A stretch of 35,099 nucleotides of DNA, from contig JALAGF010004364.1 in the NCBI GenBank assembly GCA_030167865.1, positions 1 to 35,099 of the forward strand, written 5' to 3'. Origin of the DNA: Craspedostauros australis. Its lineage: Eukaryota. Made by a program: the position numbers and the translations under genes. Each line of letters starts with the position of its first letter. Positions within the stretch are counted from its first letter, which is position 1. Below, in pieces: positions 16,378 to 34,807 of this stretch. The notes under the pieces are model-generated. The model did no database searches and was not told the DNA's origin. It saw nothing but the letters and a program-made list of their open reading frames with translations.

Positions 16378-19300
16378 CTACCAGAACAGCCCCTGGCTCT
16401 GCGTCTTCCGGTTCAGCTCCTTCGCCATGGATGCAAAGTCTTGGCTGGCATTTACTAGCCGATCGGACTTGTCCGCCAGAGTATTCAGCTTCTCTCCGCG
16501 TTCGTTCAGAGCATCACGGGTTTGGCCAAGCCGTGCTGCCAGCCCGTTGGTTTGGTCCGCCATGTCGTTGCCTCTTTGTGCGGTTTCGTCCACATCGCCG
16601 AAGACTGCCTTGGTCATGTTCTGCATCACTCCATCAAACAAAGATTCTCGTTGGGATGCAGTCTGAGCCTCCAATTTGGCCAACCGAGCATCGACACCGC
16701 TCGTGCTCGTTCTCTTGGATCCACCCACAACAGACGACGTCGACGAAGTTGACGAGATGGCTCTCGAGATGAAAGATGGCTTGGCCTGACTGCTGGTGCT
16801 TGTAACTCCTCCTCCTCGTGCTTGCTGCTGCTGCTGTTGTTGCTGCTGCTGAAGCCTTCGGCTTTCTGCGATCGCGTGATCGGTTTGTGCAAGGATAAAT
16901 TGGCCATCGCTGATACGACACTCCGCCCCATTCTCCACGATGCGCTTGCCAGAGCATTCGTCGCACACATGGCGCGTTGTGACTCTGCATCGGTGCTTGC
17001 GATTCATCAAAGTCCCGAATGCCTTCCAGCAGATGGAGCATGACTTCTCGTCGCTGCCGCCAGGTGCCGCCGAGTCCGGGATCGGCGACTTGTTGTCTTG
17101 ATGAATGACCGCCGTGCCACAGCCAGGCACTGTCTTTGCCGTGCCCCAAATCGTCTGCGCCGCGATGATGCTGCTGCCTCCGAGCATCGATTCGAGTTGC
17201 TTCATGGATGAGATCTTCAGTTTGGAACGGTCAGCGTCGAACATGCTCCCGTTCGTCGACATAGCTTCCGCAGCTGGGGCGAAACTGCAGGGCAGAGTGT
17301 TGCGTGTGGCAGGCCGAGCGAAAGGGGGAGAGTCGAGCAGACGTGCCCCGACCTTGAATAACGCCTCTGCAGCGCTGCCCAGCACAGCCAGCAAGGTCGC
17401 TCGGAGGCCAGCGTCGATGTCATTGGACGCACTTTCAATGTCAAAGATGGCAGCAATTACGATCTGGAGCGGCGAGAATCCGGTGTGCGCAATCAACTCA
17501 TCATCGCCGAAGTAACGATCGCAAAGCCCTTCGATACGCTCGTTTGGTTCGAACCCGCACTTGACCAGTGCTTCCAGCGTCCTTCGAGACAAGAATCGGG
17601 ACGGTTCGAGATGCGATGACGCATGATACCATCCAGATATGCGAGTAGAAAGAAGGGCATGCGATGCAATGGATGTTGAATGTGGTATGACAGAAAAACA
17701 GTAATACGACCACATGCGCAGTGTGAGGAGAGTTGTCGAATAGAGGTTTGATGGCGTGATAGTACTCGTATGATGGTGCAATTCAAAGGCGTCTCGGTGA
17801 GCACTGCATTGAGAATACAGCACTTGACTCCATCGTCGTTTTGCGCTGCGATTAAGCCATGGTCTGTTAATCAGATTTCAGTTTGAAAAATAGCACAGTG
17901 ACAAGCAGCAGCAGAACGACGTCACTGCAAGATACGTGGGGATTTAGCACTCACCCAACGACCGCGTTCTGCTTCGCTCTGATCTTGGGGTCAACTGCAT
18001 GCGTCATCGTTGATTGGATGATCATTCGCCGCAGCGCGATCAAGGCTTGGTGGATCGGGTATTGGTACATGGCGCTGACCGTGATCCCGATCGCTGCGTC
18101 CATGCCCTTCCTCACAGACAGAGGGTATCGGAATGGGATATGGTTCATGAGGACCGAAATGTTCTCATGTTCCCACAGCGACGCCAATTCGCTGACGGGA
18201 TGCTTCTGATTGGATTGCACGTCGAACAGCTTCCCTCCGTGGCTATGCAGAACCGACAAGCACCTATCCAGTGCGTGTGGATCCTTCATGTTGCCTACAG
18301 AACGCCCCTCGGTAATGGCGACGTACATGGGCGTGCGATTGTGCTTGTCGAGGACGTTGGGTCGTTTGCTGGCCTTGAGGATGGTGTCGAGGCTCATGAA
18401 GTCGAGATGGAGCGCGGATAGGTGGATGGGAAATCGGTTGAGATCTCCCACTTGCAAGTACGTGTTGGCCCCAGCATGAACGAGTTCTGTGACAATCTTG
18501 CTGTTGCGGCTGGAGCATGCATAGTGCAATGCGGTCAGGCCCTTCTCGTCCTGCTGGTCGAGTATCTTGGGGTCGAGGAAGTTGAGGGAGCCGCGTTCCT
18601 CCTGAGTCAATTCCAACGATTGCGCACGTTGCTTCTGCTGATCGATGGCCGCGGCGATGGCTTTCCTGAGCCCCTCGAGGTCACCGACCATGACGTAGGA
18701 ATGCAGAGTTCCGAGGATCACCTGATGCTTCCACGACATGTCTTCCGATTTCGCTTTGCTCGTTCCATCCGAAGCGTGCGCTGCGCATAGCGTCTGTTGC
18801 ACGAGAAGCTCGGCCTTGGACGTTTCCAAATGGGCGCCCGAATCACCGAAGTTGGTCAAGGCACGCTCCGCACCAGGTCTCAGCACGACAGCGGACAGGA
18901 CGATGGTCTCCGTCGGTGTGATGAGTTCGAAGCATGATCGACGACGGGAGTCGCTCTCGTCGATGTCCCGTTCGATGGAAGTGACAGTTGTGAGGGGCGA
19001 AAGCCGCAGCTTGCTGGTGTTGGGATCGATGACGCTCTCCACCACCAGATTCTGTTTCATCGCATCGCTTGGCAGGTTCCTTTCCGTCTCGCTGAGCAAC
19101 TGCGCCAGTTCTGCCACATCCTTTGCCGGTCGCACCAACAGCAACAGCAGAGGGTCTTCGTACACGAATAGCTCGCGTGGTTCGTATGACTGCCCACCCC
19201 ACATGAGGATCTTGCGTGTGCGGAAGTACCTGTACGTGGTGATGCCGTAGGTGATCTTGCGCACCCCATTGAGTGACATCCAGCGCAGATTGTCCCAGCC

Positions 19301-21812: not shown

Positions 21813-22105
21813 ATGATCGCACTTTCGGCCTTCAGCGGCCGTCTCATTCTCCTTGTGTCCTTCACTTGCCTTATGCTTGTGAGTGGAGACATGGGCAATG
21901 AGATGACCATGTCAACCAAGAGGACGAAGGCCCGCAGGCTGCGACTGGTACGTTCGCCATCAAAGGATACACCGTTGCACCATTTGCTGCCAGGATGCTT
22001 TTGAAGTTACCAATCGATTGTAATTGATGTCATCAATTCACGTTCGTTTCTCTTGCAATATATAATATGTATTCCTGGTCCTTCCCACAGTCGGTAAACT
22101 AACCA

Positions 22106-22148
<43 letters not shown>

Positions 22149-25100
22149 ATGCTACCTATCGTGATTGATGCTTCTGACAAACAGAGAGACTCCACTTCGA
22201 ATACCACCACCTCCGCGAACACCAAGGCCATGCCTTCTCAATCCAAACACGACAAGGCCAAGTCCAAGTCCAAGATCTCGAAGAGCGACACCATGCCTTC
22301 GACGTGCAACCAGGACGAAGCTGGATTATTTTTCGCCGGAGTCACAAGAGCTCTCTCAGCAAGCCCAGGACTGATCGAGATGACGTGGCGTCCTGCCCAG
22401 TTCTTCAACACTACCGAAAACTTCGATGTGGAAACGTGCGAAGACATTGTCTACGAGCTCTTCATCGCAGAAGGGACCGTCAACTTCACAGAGACCCCGC
22501 TTGATGATCTTCGTGCAGATGGCTCCGTTCAGACGTACGAAACCACTGGCCTTGCCTTCACCGCAGAGAATCTCGTCAATGGAGCAATGTACAGCCTCCT
22601 CCTGGTTGCCAAGGTTGGTGATGGATGGGTGTCGTCGAACAGAGACGCTTCTGTGCTCACTATTTCGTCGGCTGATCCCATTATCCGTCAAAGCGTGAAC
22701 GTGGTTGCCTTGGAACACAGTACAAGCCTTGTTCAATACGAAGGCGACTCCTTGGTGAGCGTCCAGGGAGACGACACCGAAGGTCTTGTCGCAAAAACTT
22801 GGATCACAGGACTGGATGTGCTCGGTCAGCCCTACATCGTTCAGCTCATCTCTGTGGATAGCATGAGTGGGCAGGGTAGCAACGGGGCAACTTTTTGGAA
22901 TGTGCGGAACGGCACCCTCGTGGACATCTACGAACGTCTCAGCATTTCTGTGGCAATGGAAGTCCCAAATGACCCAGACGATGACGATGAACAAACCAAC
23001 AGCGGTCGTTCGCTGCAGTCTGACATAGCTGTCCTGGAAACTTTTCGCAGGACATTCAATTTTGAAGCCTCTGAACAGTTTGGTCCCGCGAAGATCGAAT
23101 ACAAAGCCACAACGGTGTTCATGTTGCAACTCAGCTTGGAGATTGACTTCCCCTCCTTATTATCCGCGGGTCAGTTCGAGGTGTCAGTTGAACTCAATGT
23201 CAAGTTGTCACAGACGGCGACTTTCACAGCCGAAGGGTCCATTTCAGAGTCGGTGGATGAAGACGAGGTACTTGTGGAAGGGAGGACCGTCACAGTCAGA
23301 TTCCTGGCTGCAGGAGTCCCAGTGTTCGTCCTCGTCACTCCTGCTATCGATGTCTTCCTCCAGGCTCAATTCGATTTCAATGGCAAGTTGGTGGTGACGG
23401 CGAAGGCGACTGACTCTGTCGGCTGGCGAGTCAAATATTCGCTATTCGATGGGTGGGAGTCCACCCCCATTCTCCCACCCCCGACCAGAGACATCGGGTA
23501 CGAGCTTGACGCGAAGGCGACCTTCGATCTATACGAAGGGGCACGCTTGAGAGTCGACCTACTCATCTACGGAGCCATACTCATATCTCCCTATGTCGAG
23601 AGTGGCCCAGCCATTTCCATCGAAGCCGTGGACAACCCGAATCCGGTGATTAACGACGACCCCATCAATCAACTCTTCCATTTCAACAAATTTGATCTGG
23701 ACCTCAAGGCTGCAATCGGCGTTCGGGGTTTATTCGAGCTGGACCTTCCAATCCTTGGCTTGGTCTCTGTGAGTTTCGATGTCAATGTCCCAGGATCCAC
23801 TCCGTTGCAGTCGCTCCCATCCGCAAAAGTCGTGATTTCCGATTTTATCCAATGCACAGGAGACGATGCGATACAGCTCATGCTCGAGCTGCAGGAGGAA
23901 CCGTATACCCTCCCTTTGGACAATGCACTCGAGGATAGATACAACAGCATCGTATCGCCAGATAATCTTTGGATGCTCGAAGATCAGCTTCCAGATCAGC
24001 CGACGGCGCGGTTGACACTGAAGCGCTCAACGATCGAGATGAATGACTTCTTCCGGCTTCCGAATGGGGAAACGATCTACTTCGTAGCGAGCGCGGATGA
24101 CCCTTCCCTTCCAGTGTTTTCCCTGCTTTTTGAGCAAGCGCTTGGAAGTATCGAAGGACTTCCAGAGCTCGAACCTTTTGACTGCTGCGATGTTTCTGAC
24201 TGCGAACTCAAGTTTTCGGGAGCGGGTATGGATGCAACGCCTTCTTCATGCGTTGATTTCATGTGCATTGAGGGTTCACCTTCTCCAACATCTCCTCTAA
24301 CACCTTCTCCAACTCCTCTCGATGACGATGCTGACGAAGCTGGAGGGTACGGGGATCCACACTTGTTCACCTACGATGGAGTGCAATACTCCTGCCAGGG
24401 AGGTGGAGACTTCGTCTTGACCAAGTCTCTCGATTCAACTCTGATGATCCAAGCTCGGTTCAAGAAGCAAAACCTTCTCGTCTCCTTCATAACGGCGATT
24501 GTGATCAGATCTGGCGACCCAGGGAGTCCGGTTGTTGAAATTGCGATTTCAGAAGACGAAAGCCGGGCCGTCTACATACTAGTGGACGGGAACGTCGCGA
24601 CGCCCACACAAACGCAAACCTCATCCACATCTGTGTACGAAGACCCCCTTGTTCGCATTGAGGCATCCACGCGCAACTACGACGTGTGGTTCAAAGCGAA
24701 CAACTTGCGAATTTTCAATTCTCTGCGGCTCCCATCCAGCTTCCCGCACTTCCAAACTCGCGTCAGTCTTCCAACATCCTTCCGCAACGAACGAATCATC
24801 GGCCTATTGGGATCAAACAACAATGATCCGACTGATGAGTGGAGTGATCGAGACGGGAATGTTCTTCCGCTCGCACCATTCCGATACGGCTCTGATGCGT
24901 ACAACTACTGTGTCCCCAACTGGTGCATCCAAGATGAAACAGAATCGCTATTCAACTACACCGACGAGTATTCCTTCGACTATCACAGTTTCTGCGATGA
25001 TCCCTTCCCAGGAGACGTTGACACCAGCCAAGCATCGCAAGAAATCCTGGATATCTGCGGTCTTGACTTGAGCTGCATCATCGACGGCATCGAGTTGGGC

Positions 25101-26036
25101 GTCGAAGGCTCCTCCAACGCTCTCGAAGCGCAAGCGGAACTCGTGAACACAAACCCTTCATCTCGATTCCAATTCGCCCCGTCATCAATTCAAGCTGGAT
25201 CGCCCAACAACGTACAGATCACCTTGGATTTCAACACCGTCGATAATGGCGCAGATGCGGCACAAGCCGAGCGTTTCAATATCTATCGCATCGATTCCGC
25301 TACCTTCGAAATTGCATCTCCCGTGCTCGTGGCCTTGCGAGATGATGGCGCGGGCGTTGATGATACTGCCGGCGATCTGATTTTCACAAACGTACTGGCG
25401 CTTCTATCGTCCACCGGCGGCGAGGTCTTCAGTTACACTGCCATTCCTGTCATCGGTGGTGTCGAGGTTCCTGACAGCCCCCTTCGCACGACTGCAGCAA
25501 CGGCAGTGATCTCCTTCAGCGTCCAGTCCGGCCTCGGGTCAGTGGGGAATGCTACATTGCAAACACTCGTGGCAGACTCCATCGACGAACTTGTGATCGT
25601 TGTAGAGTACTCTTGGCCCGCCGATCAGTCTGATTTGGATACCGGCACGATCTTTCTGGATGGAGCTGTTGGCTATGATTGCGGTGCAAGTCCGTACATG
25701 TCATTCTCTGGCGACAGCACCGCAACTGGAGGATCAGAAACAGTGAAGATTCGTGTCGGCGATGCCTACAACAATGGCGATTGGGTGGACAGCACAATCG
25801 TGGACATGAATGCAGATTGGTTTTCATCTGCGATGGGCAGTGGTCCAGCCTCCTTGACCGTGTTCATTGAAAGCTTGGACCAAGGCAGTGGCGGACAAAC
25901 CGTGGTCAGTCCAGCGTATTCCTTCGTCATCAATCCTGGCATGGGATCTGGGTGCGCATCGACTGATGCTGCGGTTGCCCTCGTCACGCTCAACGAGGAC
26001 GACGGCCGTGTTGTGATTCTCGTCATCCCAGCGTAG
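21813..26036 (+). CDS. Large secreted mosaic protein: signal peptide, FN3-like domain, beta-rich domain, VWD/GDPH domain, C-terminal beta domains; ~1328 aa
   Basis: Exon 1 (21813-21947) encodes the signal peptide MIALSAFSGRLILLVSFTCLMLVSG and ends at donor GTACGT. It joins exon 2 (22185-26036) in phase 0, with branch CTGAC and a CAG acceptor. The VWD signature is GYGDPHLFTYDGVQYSCQGGGDFVL...IIGLLGSNNNDPTDEW, followed by a Cys-containing segment. Confidence 0.88.
22111..22146 (+). repeat. (CT)18 microsatellite in the intron of the VWD gene
   Basis: Read directly from the sequence. Confidence 0.95.
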
Positions 26037-26451: not shown

Positions 26452-28781
26452 CTAGAATTCACCGAATGGGTCACCTGCATTCGGATACATCTGCTGCGCC
26501 TGGCTCGGCGACAAGGCCTGGACGGCGGCTTCACGACGTCGTTCGACGATGGAATTCAATTCTGCGGCGACGGTGAGGACGATGGGCCGCGGCGCCATCT
26601 TGATCAGTGCCACAGTGTCGCCCCACATCATGTTGGTAATGGGACGTCGCAGGTCTACACCGCCAGCTTCTCGAATGATGTCACCGACCTCGATCTTACC
26701 TTTCCGAGCGATGGGAGATCCAGGGACGTCAGGTGAAACATCGATAACACGAACCACGCCATCAGGACCCCGGTTCAGCTTGATGCCAAGCGCTTCGGAC
26801 AAGAACATGACGTCGCGTTCGGGTCCGATTTGGAGGGATACATTCTTCGCCTTCAATGATTGCTGTGGCCATTTCTTTGGCATGCTCGGTAGGTTGTTCG
26901 TCCTTTGCAGCGCCTGTGATTTCCACGGGAGTGCGATTAATGTGGGAGCGTCATGGGGAGATGCACAGAGAGAGAGAGAGAGAGAGAGCAAGACGTGGCG
27001 CGGTACAGAAGTGCGTGAGGAAATGGCAATTCGGACAGCAACGAGGTGAAACCATTGCGCAGTATGCTTGTGCTTGCGCGTGTTGTTTGGGCGCGTGTCC
27101 ATTTGGATCACACCATTGGATTTTTGGTGAAGGAACTCACCTCTTCTCTGGGAACAAATCGCGGCGGTTTCAATTTGGGTATCGTCTTTTGCACGGTCGG
27201 TTGCTGTTGCTGCGGTAGATTGTCGGCCAGTGCCGCTTCGGCTTTTTGCAAATACGCTCGGTCGAACATGCTGAGGGATTGGCCGTCAGGCAACAGGGCC
27301 TTGCATTCTCGGAATGCATCGATGGAGCCGGCGTAGTCCTTCAGGTAAAATAAAGACTTGGCGAGGGTGGAGTACGCCTCCGGCGTGGGCTTGATCTTGA
27401 TGGCGAGTTTGGCATCGATCTTTGCGCTCTCGTGTCGTCTGCTGCCGTTGAGTGCGTGCGCGCGTCCGAGGTGGAGATCGGGTGAGAGGTTGTAGTCGTC
27501 GGGTACCAAAAACAGCGCCGCGGTGTATTCTTCAATGGCGTATTTGTAATTCTTGTTGGCAAGGTACTTGTTGGCACGTTCTTGGATCCGCAGCGCTTCA
27601 TCAAAGTCCGGATCGTCTTCGTTCTCGATCGGTGGCAAGGATTGGTTCGTGCCGGATACGCCTGCGCCCACCACGGCGCGTGCGATGGCGTTGGAATCTC
27701 CGCGGAATCCCAGTGTGTTGACGACGGCGGCCTGCGCGTTTGGATCCGTGGCGATGCTATTAGCAACGGTGCCCTGCATGCTGGATTCTGCCGTGATGAC
27801 GGAAACCTCCTCACCTCTTGACTGCCTCGCCGCCTTCTCGCGCTGGCGTTGTAATTTGGCGGTCGCCTTTTCCAGGTAGGTTTGGGTGACCTTGTTGTCG
27901 GGTTCGTAGTGCAAGGCATCCTGATAGGCGGTGACTGCGCCATCGTAATCCTTGAGGAAGTAAAGCGATTGGCCGAGACGTGCATGCGCCTTTCCGAATG
28001 TTGGAGCCAGGGCAATTGCACGTTTGGCATCGGTTGCTGCCGCCGAGTATCGTTTGAGGGAGAGGAGTGCGGCTGATCTGTTGGACAAGAAGACGTGAGA
28101 TGATGGCCCGACAGGTGATAGCTGCAGCGCTGCTGAATACGCGTTGTATGCCCTTGTGTACTCCTGCGATTGCGTCAAGATGGGCGTTACATGGCGTGAA
28201 GCAATGAATGGTGTGAATTGGTGGTTGTGAATTTGTGAGGGTTATGTATTGCAATGTCATGGCATGCAATAAAATGTGACGACGGAGGAAGAAAGTGTCA
28301 GCATGGGGTTGGACAATCTGACAGCAGAGTGGAGCATTCATCACACGCCGGTGTGCTTGTGGAGATTACTGAGCTGGCTCATCGAATGAAAGATGGAATG
28401 CACTCATGCGGAAACGGAGAGCCTGCCGAACATCCAGCCAGATAGCCAGCCCAAAGCAAGTAGAGTGAAGCAGAATGCTCTGCTCTGTTTGATTGCGTGA
28501 TCGCGTACCTGCGCTGCCATGTGCTTGTTTCCCAACGCCTTCATTCGTTCCGCCTCCTGATGCAACTCCTCGAGCTGCGCCAGATCCAACAGCGCTTCAT
28601 CAACATCGGCAGAATCCTCTGGTTCATTGATGCGATTCTGTGGCTGCGAGTTGGTAGCGTGGGGGTGGAGTTCCTCTCGCTCCCGTTGGTCGGGCTCGAC
28701 GAAGTCAGATCCTGCCTGCTCTTCCTCGTACACGGGTTCCAGCGGGACCTGCCCTCGTCGTAGTGCGGAGGAGGAGGACAT
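26452..28781 (-). CDS. TPR-repeat (two triplets) plus C-terminal PDZ-domain protein, 3 exons, ~585 aa
   Basis: Exons 28781-28509, 28163-27141 and 26913-26452, with phase-0 GT..CAG introns, join three separate track ORFs. TPR: AERMKALGNKHMAAQ-EYTRAYNAYSAALQLSP, FLSNRSAALLSLKRY, FGKAHARLGQSLY. PDZ: ALGIKLNRG..VRVIDV..SPIARKGKIEVGDII..LIKMAPRPIVLTV. Confidence 0.88.
26967..26988 (-). repeat. (AG)11 microsatellite, reading (CT)n on the sense strand, in intron 2 of the TPR-PDZ gene
   Basis: Read directly from the sequence. Confidence 0.95.
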
Positions 28782-30662
28782 GGTGGCTGCGGTTGCGGTT
28801 GCTGCGGGTTGCGTTGGTGTCTGCGCAGCTTTGGATTTTTCCGCAGAGTTGCTGGGGTGGCTTGGATTGCGATAGGAGGTGAAATCGTAGTCGAAATCGT
28901 CGTTGAAATCGTAGTCGGAGCTACTAATCCGTCCAATCCACTCTGAGGTTGTTTCTGTTGCTGTTGCTGTTAGTGTTGATGATAGCTGCGACTGTGCGAG
29001 TACACCTCCACCGATGGCATCACAAATCACCGCTGCTGAATGCCTCTTTTCTCGATTGTCCACGTGATTGTCTGCCCTGGATGTCTGCCCTGGATGCCTG
29101 TGTGGATGCGTCAAGGTGATCCGGAAGAACAGTTCAAAACTCCACAAGTGTTGCGACACTCCTGCTCCTCCGCCCTATCGTCGATGCTTTGCTGTTGGAG
29201 TGATGGCGATGCCTCTGCACACGGATAGAAGAGAGCGACCAGCTTGACTTTGCGCTTTTTTGAGCTGGTGGATAGTCTTCCCTTCCCTTGCCTTTCGTTT
29301 CTTTGGAGTTGCTGTCTCTGCTTCACGAGTATCCGTCTGTTGCGTGCTATGTTTTGCTATGTTGTGTTGATCGGATGAGTGGGAGTTGCACCTGTCGACG
29401 CAATGATGCAAGAAAGCATTGGAGTGGAGCACTCGACTCGACTCTGCTTTATCTCGTTTGGAATGTTGCTGTTTGTGTTCTGTTGTCTACTTTTGGGTGC
29501 TGCTCAGGTGCTTGGCCGATGATGGTGCTATACGGACTGAAGGTGATGAAGAGACGGTCACGACGACAGCGACAGTGACAACCAAAGTGTCGGATGTCGG
29601 AGTGATGGCGAGAGAAGCGACCTTTGGTCGTGTATCTCGGCGAGCCTCACAAGAACAACGCCATGATCTTCGTCTTCACACCAACGCCAACGCCAACCCC
29701 AACAACAAAAATAGCAGCGCGCAGATGACGCGAGGTAGTGGTACAGGACGAGTCCGCGCTCCGCGCGTGTTGTTCGCCGTCGCCTTCATTTCCCATTTTG
29801 ACACGCTACTTCACCTAACGGATGAATTCGGCACTTCCACATGATTCGCGATAACTGGAGACTTGCGCAGCCTCCATCGTCACAAAATTACTACCACGCG
29901 ATTCGTGCGGATTGCCGAAATTCGATTTTCGTGGCGGGTTGGGCGTTTCAGCTTTTGAGCAATTCAACGGACACGTAGCGGTTAGTTCTTGCGCCAGTCA
30001 ACCAATCTACGCCTACATTAGTACTCAAATTCGGATCCTCAACAACCAAAACACAACATCGCCCATCACACATCGAAACTGTTCCGCAAACAGGCTTCCG
30101 GTTCGCGCAACCACCCGCAACAACAAATGACAAATGACAAACAACAGCAGACGGTGGGGAACATCACGAAGTGGGCCATGATGAGTCTATTGCGATCCAG
30201 GGAGAAGGCATCCTCGGCTGGTGCGAGCCATGGTACCATGTATCAAAAACCAGACTGGACGCTTCGTCAACGATCCCAATAGCGAATGCCGTTCTGCGCT
30301 GCGAGGACACTCAAGACGTGATCCAACATCGGCTGTTCTGCGATTCGCGGCCTGCCGCCATTGTCGACCCCTTCGATCGTGTTCCGACTGGATACGCGAA
30401 CCACGCAGCGATGCGAACACCATCCAATGGGATCGGCGCCACGGTTCTGACACCTGCGAGGAGAGAAGACGAACGTGCCATTGCGTCGCGCTCGTATTTG
30501 TTGATGTGTGCTCGAACGAACTACCACACACTCGACACTTCCATGGAGCATAATTATACTCATATATTCCATTACACTTGACACAAGACAGACACAACCA
30601 AACCTGACCATCATTCAGCACGTCTCAGCTCAACCAGAAACAAAGTTGTGCCAACCAACGCC

Positions 30663-31562
30663 ATGTGTGTGATTGGGATCCGATGGGACCCACAAGCGAC
30701 AACCGTAGCCTCCACGAATAGTCGTACAGCCAGCGATGCGGAAGCACCTCAGCAACATGCACAACTCGTCATCATCGCCAACCGCGACGAATACTACGAT
30801 CGCCCCAGCACGAAGGCGCACTACTGGTCTGACGGGGGTATCTTCGCGGGACAAGATCAGCTCATGGGCGGGACTTGGCTGGGTTGCTCCGCATCATCTT
30901 CCGAGACGCAACGGCATCGATTCGCAGTAATCACCAACTACTACGACCCCGCCAAGACCCAAGTTGCATTTGCCAAATCGAGAGGACGAATACCGGTCAA
31001 TTTTCTGGAATCGACACTCACTCCCCTCCAATTCGCACAGCAACTGCAAAGCGACCAAGATGCGTACGACGGATTCAACGCCATCCTCTTCGATGGGCAA
31101 CAGCTGGTGTACTGCAGCAATCGGCATCCCAACTTCCTCAAGGATCTCTCCAACGGCGGCGTCTTTGGTCTCAGCAATCATCTGCTGGACACGCCCTGGG
31201 CCAAAGTGGAGCAAATCAAGTCATTTCTGCGCGAAGGGCAAACATCATCTGAGAAACTGCTGAAGAACATGCAAAGTATCCACAATCCGACCACCAAAGA
31301 CAAGGAACGGATCTTAAAAGACAACATCTTTGTTAGAATGCCCATCCAACGGTACGGCACGCGCACGTCCACGATTGTGAAGTATCGTCCAACTGCGGGA
31401 TTTGAATTCACGGAATACAACTACGTCATGCCATCATCGTCGATCGAACTGGAAAGCTTGGTACGCGAAGTCGTCTCCGGTTCCCACAACTCCAAAAATA
31501 GAGAATGGTGTGGAGAGAAACCAAGTGATGCGTCGCAACGTATCCTTGATAGAGTCGAGTAA
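30663..31562 (+). CDS. TANGO2: TANGO2 / NRDE-family protein, 299 aa
   Basis: It starts with MC, as the family does. Motifs: IIANRDEYYDRP, GQDQLMGGTWLG, FAVITNY, KSRGRIPVNFL, YDGFN, GLSNHLLDTPWAKV, IFV..YGTRTSTIV. Confidence 0.92.
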   Translation: MCVIGIRWDPQATTVASTNSRTASDAEAPQQHAQLVIIANRDEYYDRPSTKAHYWSDGGIFAGQDQLMGGTWLGCSASSSETQRHRFAVITNYYDPAKTQVAFAKSRGRIPVNFLESTLTPLQFAQQLQSDQDAYDGFNAILFDGQQLVYCSNRHPNFLKDLSNGGVFGLSNHLLDTPWAKVEQIKSFLREGQTSSEKLLKNMQSIHNPTTKDKERILKDNIFVRMPIQRYGTRTSTIVKYRPTAGFEFTEYNYVMPSSSIELESLVREVVSGSHNSKNREWCGEKPSDASQRILDRVE

Positions 31563-31827: not shown

Positions 31828-33372
31828 TCATTCGACGACTCTCTCCAGCTGTCCACTCGATACCCGCGACGGCATTCTGTGTTCACCATTCTCGAATGAC
31901 GACGACGGCACGCTGATATCTGCCGACAGATCGGAGTTGGTTTCCCGTATCATCCCGATCTCTCTCCGCAGGCTGTGCCCGCGTTGAAACAGCTTCTGGA
32001 AGGCATCGAAGGACACCTCCTCATGACCTTGCAACATGGATGCGACGACCTTTTTTATGGCGGGAGAATCGCCCAGGATTTTTACCAAGTTTTTCTTGCT
32101 GATGTATCCCGAATGGTCCGTGTCGAGCAAATCGAAAGCCTCTCGGAGCTGGGCGTCGTCCAATTCGCCTTCGACTTCCATGGTGGTGGCGAGGAATTCG
32201 GTGTACATGATGCGGTCGTTGCAGTTGACGTCGAGCTTGTAGTATGCATCCTCCAATTCCTCCTTGGACAGCCCGCTCTGTGCGAAGCCGGTAATGAACT
32301 CTTCTTTGGTGAGGTAGCCCGTGTGACCCAGATCGAGGCGTTGGAAGACTTCGCGATATTTGGAACCGCTGTGCTTCATGGCAAGCACGTTGAGAGCGAC
32401 ACGTTTCAACGGCGACGCACGTTGGAAGAGCGCAAGAGAGACTGCGAGCTCGTTCGGAATGTACTTCTTCTTGTTGGAATTATTTTGGAGCCAGGGATGC
32501 TGCAGCGCCTGCGCTGCCGACAGCCTTGACACTGGGCTTGTGGTTGTGCATTCCATGATGAACTTCTGCGATTCGTCGGAGTGCTTCCATTTACCGAAGG
32601 GTATTCTGGACTTGGTGATCATGTTCTCGTATTCCGCAACAGAGTTGCCCTTGAAAGGCTTTTCACCATCGTTGAGGAGCATGTAGGCGACGACGCCGAT
32701 GGACCACACGTCGCATTTTGGACCGTACCGGCCCTCGATGACCTCCGGCGCCATGGTGTGTATCGAACCTGTCTTTTCTTGCAGATATTTGAATGCCCCG
32801 GGCCTGTCCTTGGGTCTTTCCAATTTCGTGGCACAGCCAAAGTCGATCAATTTGATGCTCGCGTCTGGCGATTTGTCCTCAAACATAATGTTGGACAGTT
32901 CGATGTCGCGGTGGACGATCCCGTTGTGATGAAGGTATGCGATCGCCGAGACGATCTGCCGCATGATGCTGACCACCTTCTCTTCCTTCTTGAATGGCAG
33001 ATTATCCTGCAACGTACCGCCATCGCACAGCTCCAACACCAACGAAGTCTGCTTGTTGGTCTTGGCAACTTCGTACAGCTTCACAACGTTCGGATGGTCA
33101 CATGCCGACAGCAAATTGGCCTCCTCCTTGAGGTCCACAGGCAACGTGGATTTGCCGTCGTACAGTTTGATCGCCACGCTCTTGGAGCGTCTTGTCTTGG
33201 TGTACTTGTAGGCCTTGGACTGACCCCTCCGTATCTGCGTGGATGTACCCGTGGCCAAGACGCTCTGCTCGATCTCGTACGCCTGCTCCGCCTTTCGCTG
33301 TTCGTCTTTGACCAAGTTCTCTTGCAATCGCTCGTGATTGGTGAGCTGTTGTTTGCTCGAGTTGCATCCCAT
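31828..33372 (-). CDS. Calcium-dependent protein kinase-like (kinase domain + EF-hands), N-myristoylation/palmitoylation start, 514 aa
   Basis: The first ATG, at 33372, gives MGCNSSK. Kinase motifs: VAIK, DHPNVVKLYE, HRD, LIDFG, MAPEV, CDVWSIGV, RLSAAQALQHPWL. EF-hand-like loops: DLGHTGYLTKEE, DVNCNDRIMYTE, DTDHSGYISKKN. Confidence 0.92.
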   Translation of the reverse strand: MGCNSSKQQLTNHERLQENLVKDEQRKAEQAYEIEQSVLATGTSTQIRRGQSKAYKYTKTRRSKSVAIKLYDGKSTLPVDLKEEANLLSACDHPNVVKLYEVAKTNKQTSLVLELCDGGTLQDNLPFKKEEKVVSIMRQIVSAIAYLHHNGIVHRDIELSNIMFEDKSPDASIKLIDFGCATKLERPKDRPGAFKYLQEKTGSIHTMAPEVIEGRYGPKCDVWSIGVVAYMLLNDGEKPFKGNSVAEYENMITKSRIPFGKWKHSDESQKFIMECTTTSPVSRLSAAQALQHPWLQNNSNKKKYIPNELAVSLALFQRASPLKRVALNVLAMKHSGSKYREVFQRLDLGHTGYLTKEEFITGFAQSGLSKEELEDAYYKLDVNCNDRIMYTEFLATTMEVEGELDDAQLREAFDLLDTDHSGYISKKNLVKILGDSPAIKKVVASMLQGHEEVSFDAFQKLFQRGHSLRREIGMIRETNSDLSADISVPSSSFENGEHRMPSRVSSGQLERVVE

Positions 33373-33517
33373 TTTCTTCTTCTGCTGCTGCTGCTTTGTC
33401 GTTGCTGTGACTCTGGGGGTTTGTTTCGCTTTGTCTTTTTCTCTGCTGGCTGTTGACTGTGAACGTGCGTCAGTCGGTACAATCGTTGTTGTGTGGATGC
33501 CTTGCGCTGGTTGGTAC

Positions 33518-33559
33518 TGTTGTTGTTGTTGTTGTTGTTGTTGTCGTTGGTGTTGTTGT
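33518..33559. repeat. (TGT/CAA)n trinucleotide repeat upstream of the CDPK start
   Basis: Perfect to about 33544 and interrupted after that; read directly from the sequence. Confidence 0.9.
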
Positions 33560-34807
33560 GAACTTGTCTGCTCTGATCGTAGTCGTGTGATAATTAGTTT
33601 TGTGAGCGCCAGTGTTCGTGTGATAGACAAAGAACAGGCAAGGTGGGATGGGCAGGACCAGTTGTTCGGCAAGCTTCTGCGCGAGGGAAGCAACGAGAAC
33701 GAGCACGCCGCGGTTCGGATTTTTTCCGCTCTGTGCCTATTTCTGCGATCTTGCTTCGCTCTGTGCACTGTGCACTTTCCTCCTTCGGTTCGTGTTGACT
33801 TGTTGCGTGGAGGTGCTTATCTTCTTGCTCCCAATTCGTATTGGTGGATCGTGCACGTACGACGATGATTGTGGGTGTGCCTCTTCTGCCTGGCTCTACG
33901 GTCTATTCTGCTCTCCTCGTGTCACAAGGCTGGTGTTGGCAGATGTTGATTGGTGCTGATTGGATGTGGGGGGCAGTGTGTTTCAAACGCGATGTTCCTC
34001 TGAATGTGGTGGGCCTTTTGCGGTCGCTGTTGTGGGTGATGATGATGGCGCTCTGGCGCTGCTTTCTTTGATTCAACGTTCTCGTGCGTATGGTGCTCCC
34101 CGATCTATTGTACTTGTCCGCGCAGTAGCTTTCGATGCTGGATTGACTCTGTGCACGTGTTTGCAGCTCGTGTGCTTGTAGTTCGTATCCGACTGGTGCT
34201 GCAGAAGATCCCAAGAAGTCCGAGATGGGGAGAGGTATCAGCGCGTAGCGTATGGTATGCCTCTTCGTGCAACACGATCGATGTGGAGGCACAAGACTGG
34301 TCCGGAAGTTGTCGCTGTCGGCGTTGTTGTGTACGAGCGCGCATCGGTGTGGCAATTGGCGCGAGTGTCAACATCTTTCCTCTCTCTGGCAACGTCCTCG
34401 TTGTTCGCGATGTCGTTCTCTGTCTTCTCCGACCCGACTCATCTTCGACACGAATTAACGACAAGCCAATTTCCCACGACCCAAACGAATCTTTCAGTCC
34501 GGAGGAAGATCCATTCCAAGACATTCGGGAACGGCAATGGCAGATTCGGGTTCTCTTCGGTTGCTTGGAGGAGATCGCGAACATCATGTCACGAATGCAG
34601 AGAGAAGGATATGTTGGCATATGCAGCATCTATTACCATTGCATGCTGCCCTTGCCTCGTTTGTGCTGCCTGGTAGTAGTAGTTTGCTGCGTTTTGGTAA
34701 GTTCAGCACAGGAATGAGTGTGGATGGGTCGTTAACAAAGACACGAAATTGGTTTCGATCGTATCCGATGATCCAAGCCTAGCGGCTATTGGCTAATTTC
34801 CGGTTTT

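Follow-up and report, generated by a model that had tools for sequence, protein, structure and literature searches.

A predicted extracellular VWD/GDPH protein of the raphid diatom Craspedostauros australis whose last two domains are homologous to a domain pair of PVC bacteria

What might a diatom do with a protein that joins a mucin-type, potentially self-cleaving domain to modules resembling those of bacterial surface proteins, and where did those modules come from? The question is raised by a gene at positions 21,813 to 26,036 on the forward strand of a 35,099-nt stretch of the Craspedostauros australis genome (assembly GCA_030167865.1, contig JALAGF010004364.1; hereafter the window). A first-pass annotation, made from the letters alone, had described its product as a secreted, proteolytically processed adhesive candidate that combines a VWD domain bearing a Gly-Asp-Pro-His (GDPH) motif with bacterial-like modules. 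We establish the gene model, the expression of its spliced transcript, the folds of its domains, of which the FN3-like and TerD-like ones are probable, its family and its bacterial relatives. Our preferred reading, to which we assign a probability of roughly 60%, is that the gene encodes a very acidic, modular extracellular protein of 1328 amino acids (aa) that would be secreted and would serve as a self-cleaving adhesive or cross-linking unit of the matrix or surface coat, and that its C-terminal domain pair goes back to one exchange with bacteria of the Planctomycetota-Verrucomicrobiota-Chlamydiota (PVC) group. As modelled, the protein consists of an N-terminal half and a C-terminal cassette of 570 residues, the latter made of a VWD domain with GDPH, a C8 module, an immunoglobulin-like (Ig) domain of choice-of-anchor-X type and a TerD-like sandwich. 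It belongs to the diatom VWD/GDPH family, as a so far uncharacterised protein whose N-terminal half is specific to its subfamily.

The gene is a spliced, expressed nuclear gene of this raphid diatom. Translation starts at the ATG at 21813. Exon 1 (21813-21947) encodes 45 aa (MIALS...RRLRL), and exon 2 (22185-26036), which accounts for the 3.85-kb exon reported in the first-pass annotation, spans 3852 nt within an enclosing open frame of 22098-26036. The two are separated by a single feature:

21948-22184, forward strand: intron of 237 nt, in phase, with a GTACGT donor and an AAACAG acceptor (GT..AG), containing a (CT)n run

The spliced translation, 1328 aa long, is letter-for-letter identical to P0003, a transcriptome-derived 'VWFD domain-containing protein' of the same length from C. 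australis (UniRef, MMETSP, EukProt). In addition, one 5407-nt contig of run X1, which was counted as RNA by guess and is the basis of the contig support for splicing, joins 21946 to 22184 with zero differences, omitting 237 nt with GT..AG ends. Every motif listed in the first-pass annotation, including RRLRL, GRSLQ, the Cys cluster and GDPH, lies where it had been placed. Its description of the protein as very acidic also holds: without the first 24 residues, the isoelectric point is 4.06 and the mass 140.7 kDa. The full sequence contains 17 Cys and 6 N-glycosylation sequons. Hydrophobic 19-mers occur only in the signal peptide and at residues 414-437. The latter stretch is a beta strand in the AlphaFold2 (AF2) model and contains Lys in the relative P0004, so we see no membrane anchor, in agreement with the earlier description. 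Sequence and model likewise contain no C-terminal hydrophobic anchor, as the chain terminates inside its last beta strand.

Which parts of the protein belong to known families? At E<=1 across the whole protein, VWD is the sole Pfam family. The AF2 model of the cassette (residues 757-1328, 64 sequences) has a mean predicted local distance difference test (pLDDT) score of 94.6 and a predicted template modelling (pTM) score of 0.91, and it divides into four domains:

24348..24857, forward strand: VWD domain (Pfam PF00094), with GDPH at 24351-24362
24858..25157, forward strand: C8-like helical module packed on the VWD domain (model residues ~181-280); VWF and mucin D assembly matches span model residues 4-280
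25164..25526, forward strand: Ig-like domain (model residues 283-403) with generic Ig/FN3 matches at Z ~6-7, carrying the Asp loop LRDDGAGVDDTAGDLIFT (25335-25388)
25578..26033, forward strand: last domain, a beta sandwich that is probably TerD-like by fold (model residues 421-572)

The VWD assignment is genuine. PF00094 scores 32.3 bits against a gathering threshold of 22.9 bits (E 1.5e-7, P0001 residues 722-891), and alignment of the modelled domain with VIA-align recovers VWF (8d3c, Z 23.6, 227 aligned residues, root-mean-square deviation (rmsd) 2.6) and the MUC2 C-terminus (7qcu, Z 17.5), with RGMB at Z 10.7-12.4 (7ne0, Z 10.7). Taken together, the VWD domain and C8 module match the D assemblies of VWF, MUC5AC, MUC5B, MUC2 and FCGBP at Z 17-24 and 12-20% identity. 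All 6 sequences compared have the same four cysteines in the C8-like module (C959, C982, C1003 and C1009). Pfam gives no match to a TIL module, and the order VWD-C8-TIL-E is not found here; the Ig-like and TerD-like domains come after C8.

The central mechanistic question is whether the protein cuts itself. The model places GDPH (residues 768-771) after its first strand (5-11) and before its second (15-17), with the scissile bond between Asp769 and Pro770; the Gln at +14 from D769, Q783, does not vary among 6 sequences. In domain D10 of FCGBP, mutation of the Asp or the His abolishes cleavage, mutation of the Gln at +14 has a partial effect, and cleavage serves mainly to stabilise the domain (PMC10880436). 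Since Asp, His and Gln at +14 are all found here, the sequence determinants described for Asp-Pro autocleavage are all present (PMC10880436). We infer that the protein cleaves its own Asp769-Pro770 bond. The mature chain has 8 Cys before the cleavage site and 8 after it, and this parity, which allows all pairing to take place within each fragment, suggests that no disulfide bridges the two.

Conservation of the site can be read from the 50 aligned cassette rows that cover it: 22 have GDPH, 17 have TDPH and 5 have another xDPH, so that D-P-H is kept in 44/50. It is lost in P0020, P0030, P0047, P0018, P0054 and P0057. The first three of these share the N-terminal half of our protein, have T[NS]PY where others have GDPH or TDPH, and give no Pfam VWD match. 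It seems from these sequences that one branch of the N-terminal subfamily gave up the cleavable bond. Could GDPH, then, be kept for folding only, in a protein that is either uncleaved or cleaved without functional change and works passively in the matrix or in the recognition of bacteria? The 6/50 rows without D-P-H and the 17 with TDPH in place of GDPH are consistent with this, as is the mainly stabilising effect of cleavage in FCGBP (PMC10880436). The vWD family of Seminavis robusta, moreover, is up-regulated in bacterial-interaction conditions (PMC7335047). Counter to this, the D-P-H of the 44 rows is kept along with the Gln at +14, and every VWD domain tested in the studies consulted shows cleavage of an Asp-Pro bond in this structural setting (PMC10880436). 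We consider this alternative reading rather unlikely.

What follows the VWD-C8 unit is less familiar. The Asp loop of the Ig-like domain, which begins with LRDDGAGVDD at 25335, matches the NCBIfam choice_anch_X model (NF041940) at 16.5 bits (E 0.005). The resemblance to choice-of-anchor X proposed in the first-pass annotation thus stands as a match that is also found in the bacterial counterparts carrying the last domain, but the score falls below the curated cut-off of 25 bits. The last domain, in which YSWPADQ lies at 25608, belongs to no Pfam family (protein at E<=1; 23 members at E<=10). Its best VIA matches are to TerD: 2qz7_B at Z 8.8 (125 aligned residues, rmsd 3.2) and 2kxt at Z 8.1 (127 aligned residues, 18% identity), the latter an entry whose title refers to calcium-binding properties. 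These TerD rows are the top non-VWD rows and span model residues 421-572, with the domain modelled within the whole cassette and an aligner background of 7-8. By sequence, TerD (PF02342) is absent from Pfam at E<=10 for 23 members and from a profile search of PDB sequences. The top 1000 Foldseek chains contain no TerD, and the match comes from the wide VIA search only. Because Z is near background and there is no sequence support, we regard the TerD likeness of this modelled sandwich as probable and not established.

The last domain had been annotated as similar to YfaP/DUF2135. This assignment is rejected: DUF2135/YfaP (PF09906) gives no Pfam match, and hhalign against Escherichia coli YfaP returns a probability of 1.5% over 18 columns. 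The sole trace of that family is a lead at rank 28 in the ESM Atlas, with a score of 0.88. The label DUF2135 should be replaced by 'unnamed, TerD-like'. In the diatom-type set as well as the bacterial-type set described below, 17 residues of the domain reach 85% conservation or more; four acidic ones among them, D1195, D1197, D1222 and E1230, reach 92% or more in each set. Conservation of this kind suggests that the last domain may bind Ca2+ through these four residues.

How widespread is the cassette? A HMMER scan with the last 314 residues as query returned 329 representatives at E<=1e-3, of which 188 reach 1e-10 or better and 52 reach 1e-30 or better; the family figures given here rest on the best 150 of the 329. 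The top matches cover the whole query and are VWD proteins, with a Pfam VWD match in 40/60 of P0004-P0063. More than 50 diatom-type proteins contain the cassette behind N-termini that differ, being Pro/Thr/Ser-rich in P0008, for example, and Cys-rich in P0007. The named members are raphid diatoms, namely Cylindrotheca fusiformis and a Bacillariaceae sp.

Lower-ranking HMMER matches cover the last domain only and lie in proteins whose other domains are of bacterial type. In the 85 proteins scanned, these partners are CARDB (10), Calx-beta (4), FG-GAP (3) and DUF6973 (3), with RTX, Peptidase_M23, Big_13, DUF1573, DUF5122 and DUF1833 in addition. One of the bacterial proteins, P0063, is MCA9079117.1 of a Planctomycetaceae bacterium. 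A separate scan for the pattern DLDTGTxFL[GD], in one genome per prokaryote species, matched 24 stretches, of which 5 were confirmed. These loci lie on contigs of up to 1.64 Mb in Pirellulaceae, Planctomycetaceae, Verrucomicrobia and two Victivallales genomes and have 35-49% identity to the last domain; the profile search recovered all five genomes. In the Victivallales and Pirellulaceae open reading frames (ORFs; L001:1835-4405 and L002:1346-4441), the Ig-type domain and the last domain are both present. The former carries the motif LYDDG...D..(A/T)(G/D)D(G/S)IYSN, and the latter follows ~280-300 residues further on. Bacterial-type proteins match choice_anch_X in 7/8 cases at 22.0-26.1 bits, with 3/8 above the 25-bit cut-off. 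Diatom cassette proteins match in 5/9 cases at 14.2-19.9 bits, all below it.

The Ig-like and last domains co-occur in proteins of Planctomycetota, Verrucomicrobiota and Lentisphaerota, and this supports the earlier notion of bacterial-like modules. On sequence grounds, the two domains are homologous to a domain pair of PVC-bacterial surface proteins. Between the two domains of the bacterial relatives (L001:1835-4405 and L002:1346-4441) lies a conserved His/Cys block, SHGD...G[AS]CR[ST], which looks like the core of a caspase/CHAT-type peptidase; P0069 gives a weak CHAT match (E 0.013). The diatom cassette does not contain this block and instead has the VWD domain with its autocleavage site upstream.

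Did the pair move from bacteria to diatoms? We addressed this with a tree of 156 last-domain rows (IQ-TREE 'quick', unrooted), which excluded the cluster duplicates P0156-P0164 and matches of fewer than 100 profile positions. A branch with support of 98 in the Shimodaira-Hasegawa-like approximate likelihood ratio test (SH-aLRT) has on one side 71 rows, comprising all 32 with bacterial names or bacterial partners plus 39 unlabelled, and on the other 85 rows, comprising all 63 cassette rows plus 22 unlabelled. The phylogeny that the first-pass annotation had proposed as a check thus parts the 32 bacterial from the 63 cassette rows, but the tree is unrooted and does not give a direction. This pattern suggests that raphid diatoms and bacteria exchanged the pair once, long ago, in one direction or the other. 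The suggestion of horizontal transfer holds to that extent: both C-terminal domains are clearly matched in bacteria, but the unrooted tree does not tell the donor from the recipient.

We see even odds that the transfer ran from bacteria to diatoms, because the choice-of-anchor X family is bacterial and is matched more closely by the bacterial copies, which occur in varied architectures across three phyla. The opposite case is that bacteria, for example alga-associated members of the PVC group, obtained the Ig and last-domain pair from diatoms, or that the pair is ancient and was widely lost. The diatom protein would then not have been built by bacterial transfer. With midpoint rooting, the single bacterial cluster (SH-aLRT 98) is indeed nested among cassette lineages. 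The cassette family is also large among diatom-type proteins, and the last domain is rare in the Planctomycetota sampled, being found in 1/201 genomes, where that one is the centre genome itself. Against these points stand the status of choice-of-anchor X as a bacterial NCBIfam family that bacterial copies fit better (22-26 against 14-20 bits) and the wide range of bacterial domains that accompany the last domain in three phyla. The nesting, furthermore, depends on backbone forks with support below 80 in an unrooted tree. On balance, diatom-to-bacterium transfer or ancient presence with loss appears rather unlikely.

Two further observations concern the last domain. P0074, P0089, P0121 and P0072 carry 2 to 5 tandem copies each, and the first three of these form the most divergent group in the last-domain tree. 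P0148, a protein of 190 aa that consists of the last domain only, comes from the transcriptome of the red alga Eucheuma denticulatum in EukProt, where contamination is possible; it sits outside the bacterial cluster.

Where would the protein act? Here the N-terminal half is informative, and its features are as follows:

21813..21887, forward strand: signal peptide, residues 1-25, with Arg10, hydrophobic core L11-V23 and V/S/G at -3/-2/-1
21933..21947, forward strand: RRLRL, an RXL-type (Arg-x-Leu) site by sequence motif, at the end of exon 1
22233..22295, forward strand: Lys/Ser-rich cluster, residues 62-82, with 6 Lys in 13 residues
22308..22691, forward strand: FN3-fold domain, residues 87-214 (model residues 2-129), an AF2 block with pLDDT ~66-89
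22692..22961, forward strand: second beta-rich segment (model residues 130-219), all strands, pLDDT ~71-85
22962..23060, forward strand: disordered acidic loop with GRSLQ (23004-23018), pLDDT 22-30
23061..24182, forward strand: long-strand beta region including RFLAAGVPVFVLVTP (at 23298), with AF2 strands of up to 42 residues, pLDDT ~50-75
24183..24266, forward strand: Cys cluster CCDVSDC...C...C, in which C712, C713 and C718 are invariant in 7 relatives
24279..24317, forward strand: Pro/Ser/Thr linker PSPTSPLTPSPTP, seen in the sequence; relatives have longer Pro/Thr-rich linkers in the same place

The signal peptide is predicted to be cleaved after VSG, and the Pro/Thr linker may be O-glycosylated. 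The AF2 model of this half (residues 86-756) was built from 7 sequences and has pLDDT 66 and pTM 0.58. Its first domain, annotated as FN3-like, has that fold in all 50 of the top 50 VIA-align rows (Z 6.6-7.5, rmsd mostly 2-3 over ~90-100 residues), but Pfam finds no FN3 (PF00041) in the sequence. The second beta-rich segment gives no specific structural match with VIA-align or Foldseek. The beta-strand-rich region noted from the sequence is modelled with its long strands, but at the low pLDDT given above. For this region Foldseek finds only generic multi-sandwich ectodomains at TMq 0.15 or less, and the best ESM Atlas score, 0.81, is at chance level. The RXL site proposed in the acidic loop is borne out by an R-x-L at the aligned position, in a predicted disordered loop, in 6/7 N-terminal relatives. 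A word-index search with residues 41-700 matched solely the protein itself, and homologues of the N-terminal half are limited to P0004, P0006, P0020, P0030, P0043 and P0047. Judged by this distribution, the half is specific to a small subfamily.

RXL is a potential proteolytic site in diatom frustule proteins, and the silica-targeting pentalysine cluster comprises five lysines in 12-14 residues (PMC9650480). The Lys cluster at residues 62-82 satisfies this description (PMC9650480). In P0006, RSL directly precedes a Lys cluster of its own at the equivalent N-terminal place, and P0005 too has a Lys cluster at the matching position. This raises the alternative of a frustule-associated surface protein in place of a trail adhesive, in which the signal peptide, RXL site and Lys cluster would act like silaffin or cingulin targeting and attach the acidic body of the protein to biosilica or the organic casing, for instance around the raphe or girdle. 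Six Lys in 13 residues after RRLRL, the same arrangement in P0006, and the absence of the protein from the 8 trail proteins listed in 10.1101/2023.03.06.531300 would all fit. Yet pentalysine targeting was demonstrated in a centric diatom and for silaffins, the remainder of our protein is highly acidic and shows no repeats of silaffin or cingulin type, and P0043, P0047 and P0020 have no N-terminal Lys cluster. Frustule targeting is thus, in our judgement, a rather doubtful account, and we continue with that of a self-cleaving matrix or surface-coat unit.

In the sequence of events that we propose for such a unit, the protein would enter the secretory pathway and there cleave itself at Asp769-Pro770, as MUC2, FCGBP and RGM do. 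The N-terminal fragment of ~80 kDa would then stay attached to the cassette through nothing but its last beta strand, within the VWD sheet. RXL proteases would remove an N-terminal propeptide, possibly with a further cut in the acidic loop, and the Pro/Thr linker would receive its O-glycans. With Ca2+ bound through the four invariant acidic residues of its last domain, the protein may then be incorporated into an extracellular matrix or surface coat that is acidic and depends on Ca, where it would provide adhesion or cross-links. For MUC2, cleavage leaves a reactive end that is able to cross-link.

Several results weigh against this account. The model of the N-terminal half is weak (pLDDT 66 from 7 sequences). 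Cleavage is not essential for the subfamily, because D-P-H is gone from P0020, P0030 and P0047, which are among the closest to our protein in the N-terminal half. The Asp loop (GVDDTAGD, aligned to 25335-25388) is deleted in the full-length relative P0006, so it is dispensable for the fold, and the TerD match lies barely above the aligner background and has no sequence support. As regards the exchange, the nesting of the bacterial set under midpoint rooting and the single occurrence in 201 Planctomycetota genomes count on the same side. With respect to an adhesive role, the published C. australis trail proteome consists of 8 proteins, none of which (0/8) has a GDPH domain, and the species is there termed one 'lacking GDPH-domain bearing proteins' (10.1101/2023.03.06.531300). 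Given that proteome, either the cassette is not that GDPH domain or the protein is not abundant in trails. If the cassette is the GDPH domain of the trail proteins, the gene is in tension with the 'lacking' statement. Finally, none of the cassette proteins bore the name Amphora, and the likeness of the present protein to the Amphora GDPH proteins is one of description.

The remainder of the window is unexceptional. The neighbours are ordinary eukaryotic genes, for an EF-hand kinase, TANGO2, TPR, PDZ, FYVE/synaptobrevin and ankyrin proteins and dihydroxy-acid dehydratase. Among them are ORFs for a kinase with EF hands resembling calcium-dependent protein kinases (31828-33768, reverse strand), TANGO2 (30648-31562, forward strand) and a FYVE plus synaptobrevin-like protein (16378-17823, reverse strand), which appear to be ordinary nuclear genes unconnected with the secreted VWD protein. 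The 35,099-nt window contains no paralogue of the gene. Within the intron, a (CT)n microsatellite of ~20 units occupies 22108-22147, just 5' of the acceptor region. The X1 contig that spans the splice junction also extends more than 1.1 kb beyond 26250, across a convergent PDZ-domain ORF (26452-27111, reverse strand). This overhang could be a long 3' untranslated region or the product of overlapping convergent transcripts merged in assembly.

What would the locus mean for diatom adhesion? We assume that the 'GDPH domain' known from diatom adhesive-trail proteins is this cassette or a part of it. Lachnit et al. 2019 reportedly place the GDPH domain of the Amphora trail proteins at the C-terminus. 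A bolder idea, which we advance tentatively, is that the diatom GDPH domain is a fusion of a mucin-type autocleaving VWD-C8 unit with a choice-of-anchor-X Ig and TerD-like Ca-binding pair that crossed between PVC bacteria and raphid diatoms in a single event, and that C. australis has at least one such protein. If true, the diatom toolkit for gliding and adhesion would have taken in bacterial surface-adhesin modules twice independently, the choice-of-anchor-A (CAA) Trailins being the first case. Raphid diatoms are currently split into users of GDPH proteins and users of type-1 CAA Trailins (10.1101/2023.03.06.531300), and a GDPH/VWD cassette protein in C. australis would blur that division. 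The species is a laboratory model for diatom gliding and underwater adhesion and is transformable, and the gene offers a test case for the role of Asp-Pro self-cleavage in diatom matrices. The four-fold dissection yields hypotheses of its own: a Ca site made of four invariant acidic residues, and fragments coupled by a beta strand alone. It also defines an unnamed domain family, covered by no Pfam model, that is common to diatoms and to Planctomycetota, Verrucomicrobiota and Lentisphaerota. We found no paper on this protein or on its four-domain dissection, in a search that most subscription journals lay outside.

Looking across known systems, the nearest in description are the diatom GDPH trail proteins. 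Trail proteins of Amphora, such as Ac629 of Amphora coffeaeformis, carry a diatom-specific GDPH domain (10.1101/2023.03.06.531300). They are secreted, as the present protein is predicted to be, and like it contain Gly-Asp-Pro-His and belong to raphid diatoms. In Seminavis robusta, GDPH is combined with vWD: vWD/GDPH proteins are expanded, with 61 vWD proteins that also have a GDPH domain (PMC7335047), and 87 GDPH proteins were counted in another study (PMC8027222). Unlike other GDPH proteins, ours has an N-terminal half common to only about six other proteins.

With MUC2, MUC5AC, FCGBP and RGM, the protein shares the VWD and C8 fold, the place of GDPH between the first two strands, and the Asp, His and Gln+14. 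It differs from mucin-type VWD proteins in having Ig-like and TerD-like domains instead of TIL or E modules and far fewer Cys, with 6 in VWD plus C8 and no obvious Cys bridging the two fragments.

The term 'choice-of-anchor' implies association with a bacterial sorting anchor. For the CAA family such an association has been described, and the CAA domains of the Trailins are ascribed to bacterial horizontal gene transfer (10.1101/2023.03.06.531300). Trailins and the present protein have in common that they occur in C. australis, that they are, or in our case would be, extracellular, and that they contain a 'choice-of-anchor' module of bacterial type without the bacterial anchor. In our protein, however, the module is a choice-of-anchor X motif in an Ig-like domain and not a CAA beta-helix (Pfam gives no match to PF20597 in the protein), and the protein is absent from the trail proteins listed in that paper.

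The PVC proteins, exemplified by MCA9079117.1, are the relatives of the C-terminal pair. Both domains are homologous; the last has 35-49% identity and 17 conserved residues in common with the diatom protein, and the Ig domain shares the motif LxDDG...D..AGDxI(F/Y)SN. The PVC proteins differ in having no VWD domain, bacterial N-terminal partners (FG-GAP, CARDB and others), and a pair that stands ~280-300 residues apart with the His/Cys, caspase/CHAT-like block between. Lastly, TerD, a Ca-binding beta sandwich of tellurite resistance, is known for a conserved acidic motif. Its fold (2kxt, 2qz7) is the best structural match of the last domain, over its whole length and at Z near background, and conserved acidic clusters occur in both, but TerD is cytoplasmic and bacterial, whereas the last domain is part of a predicted extracellular protein.

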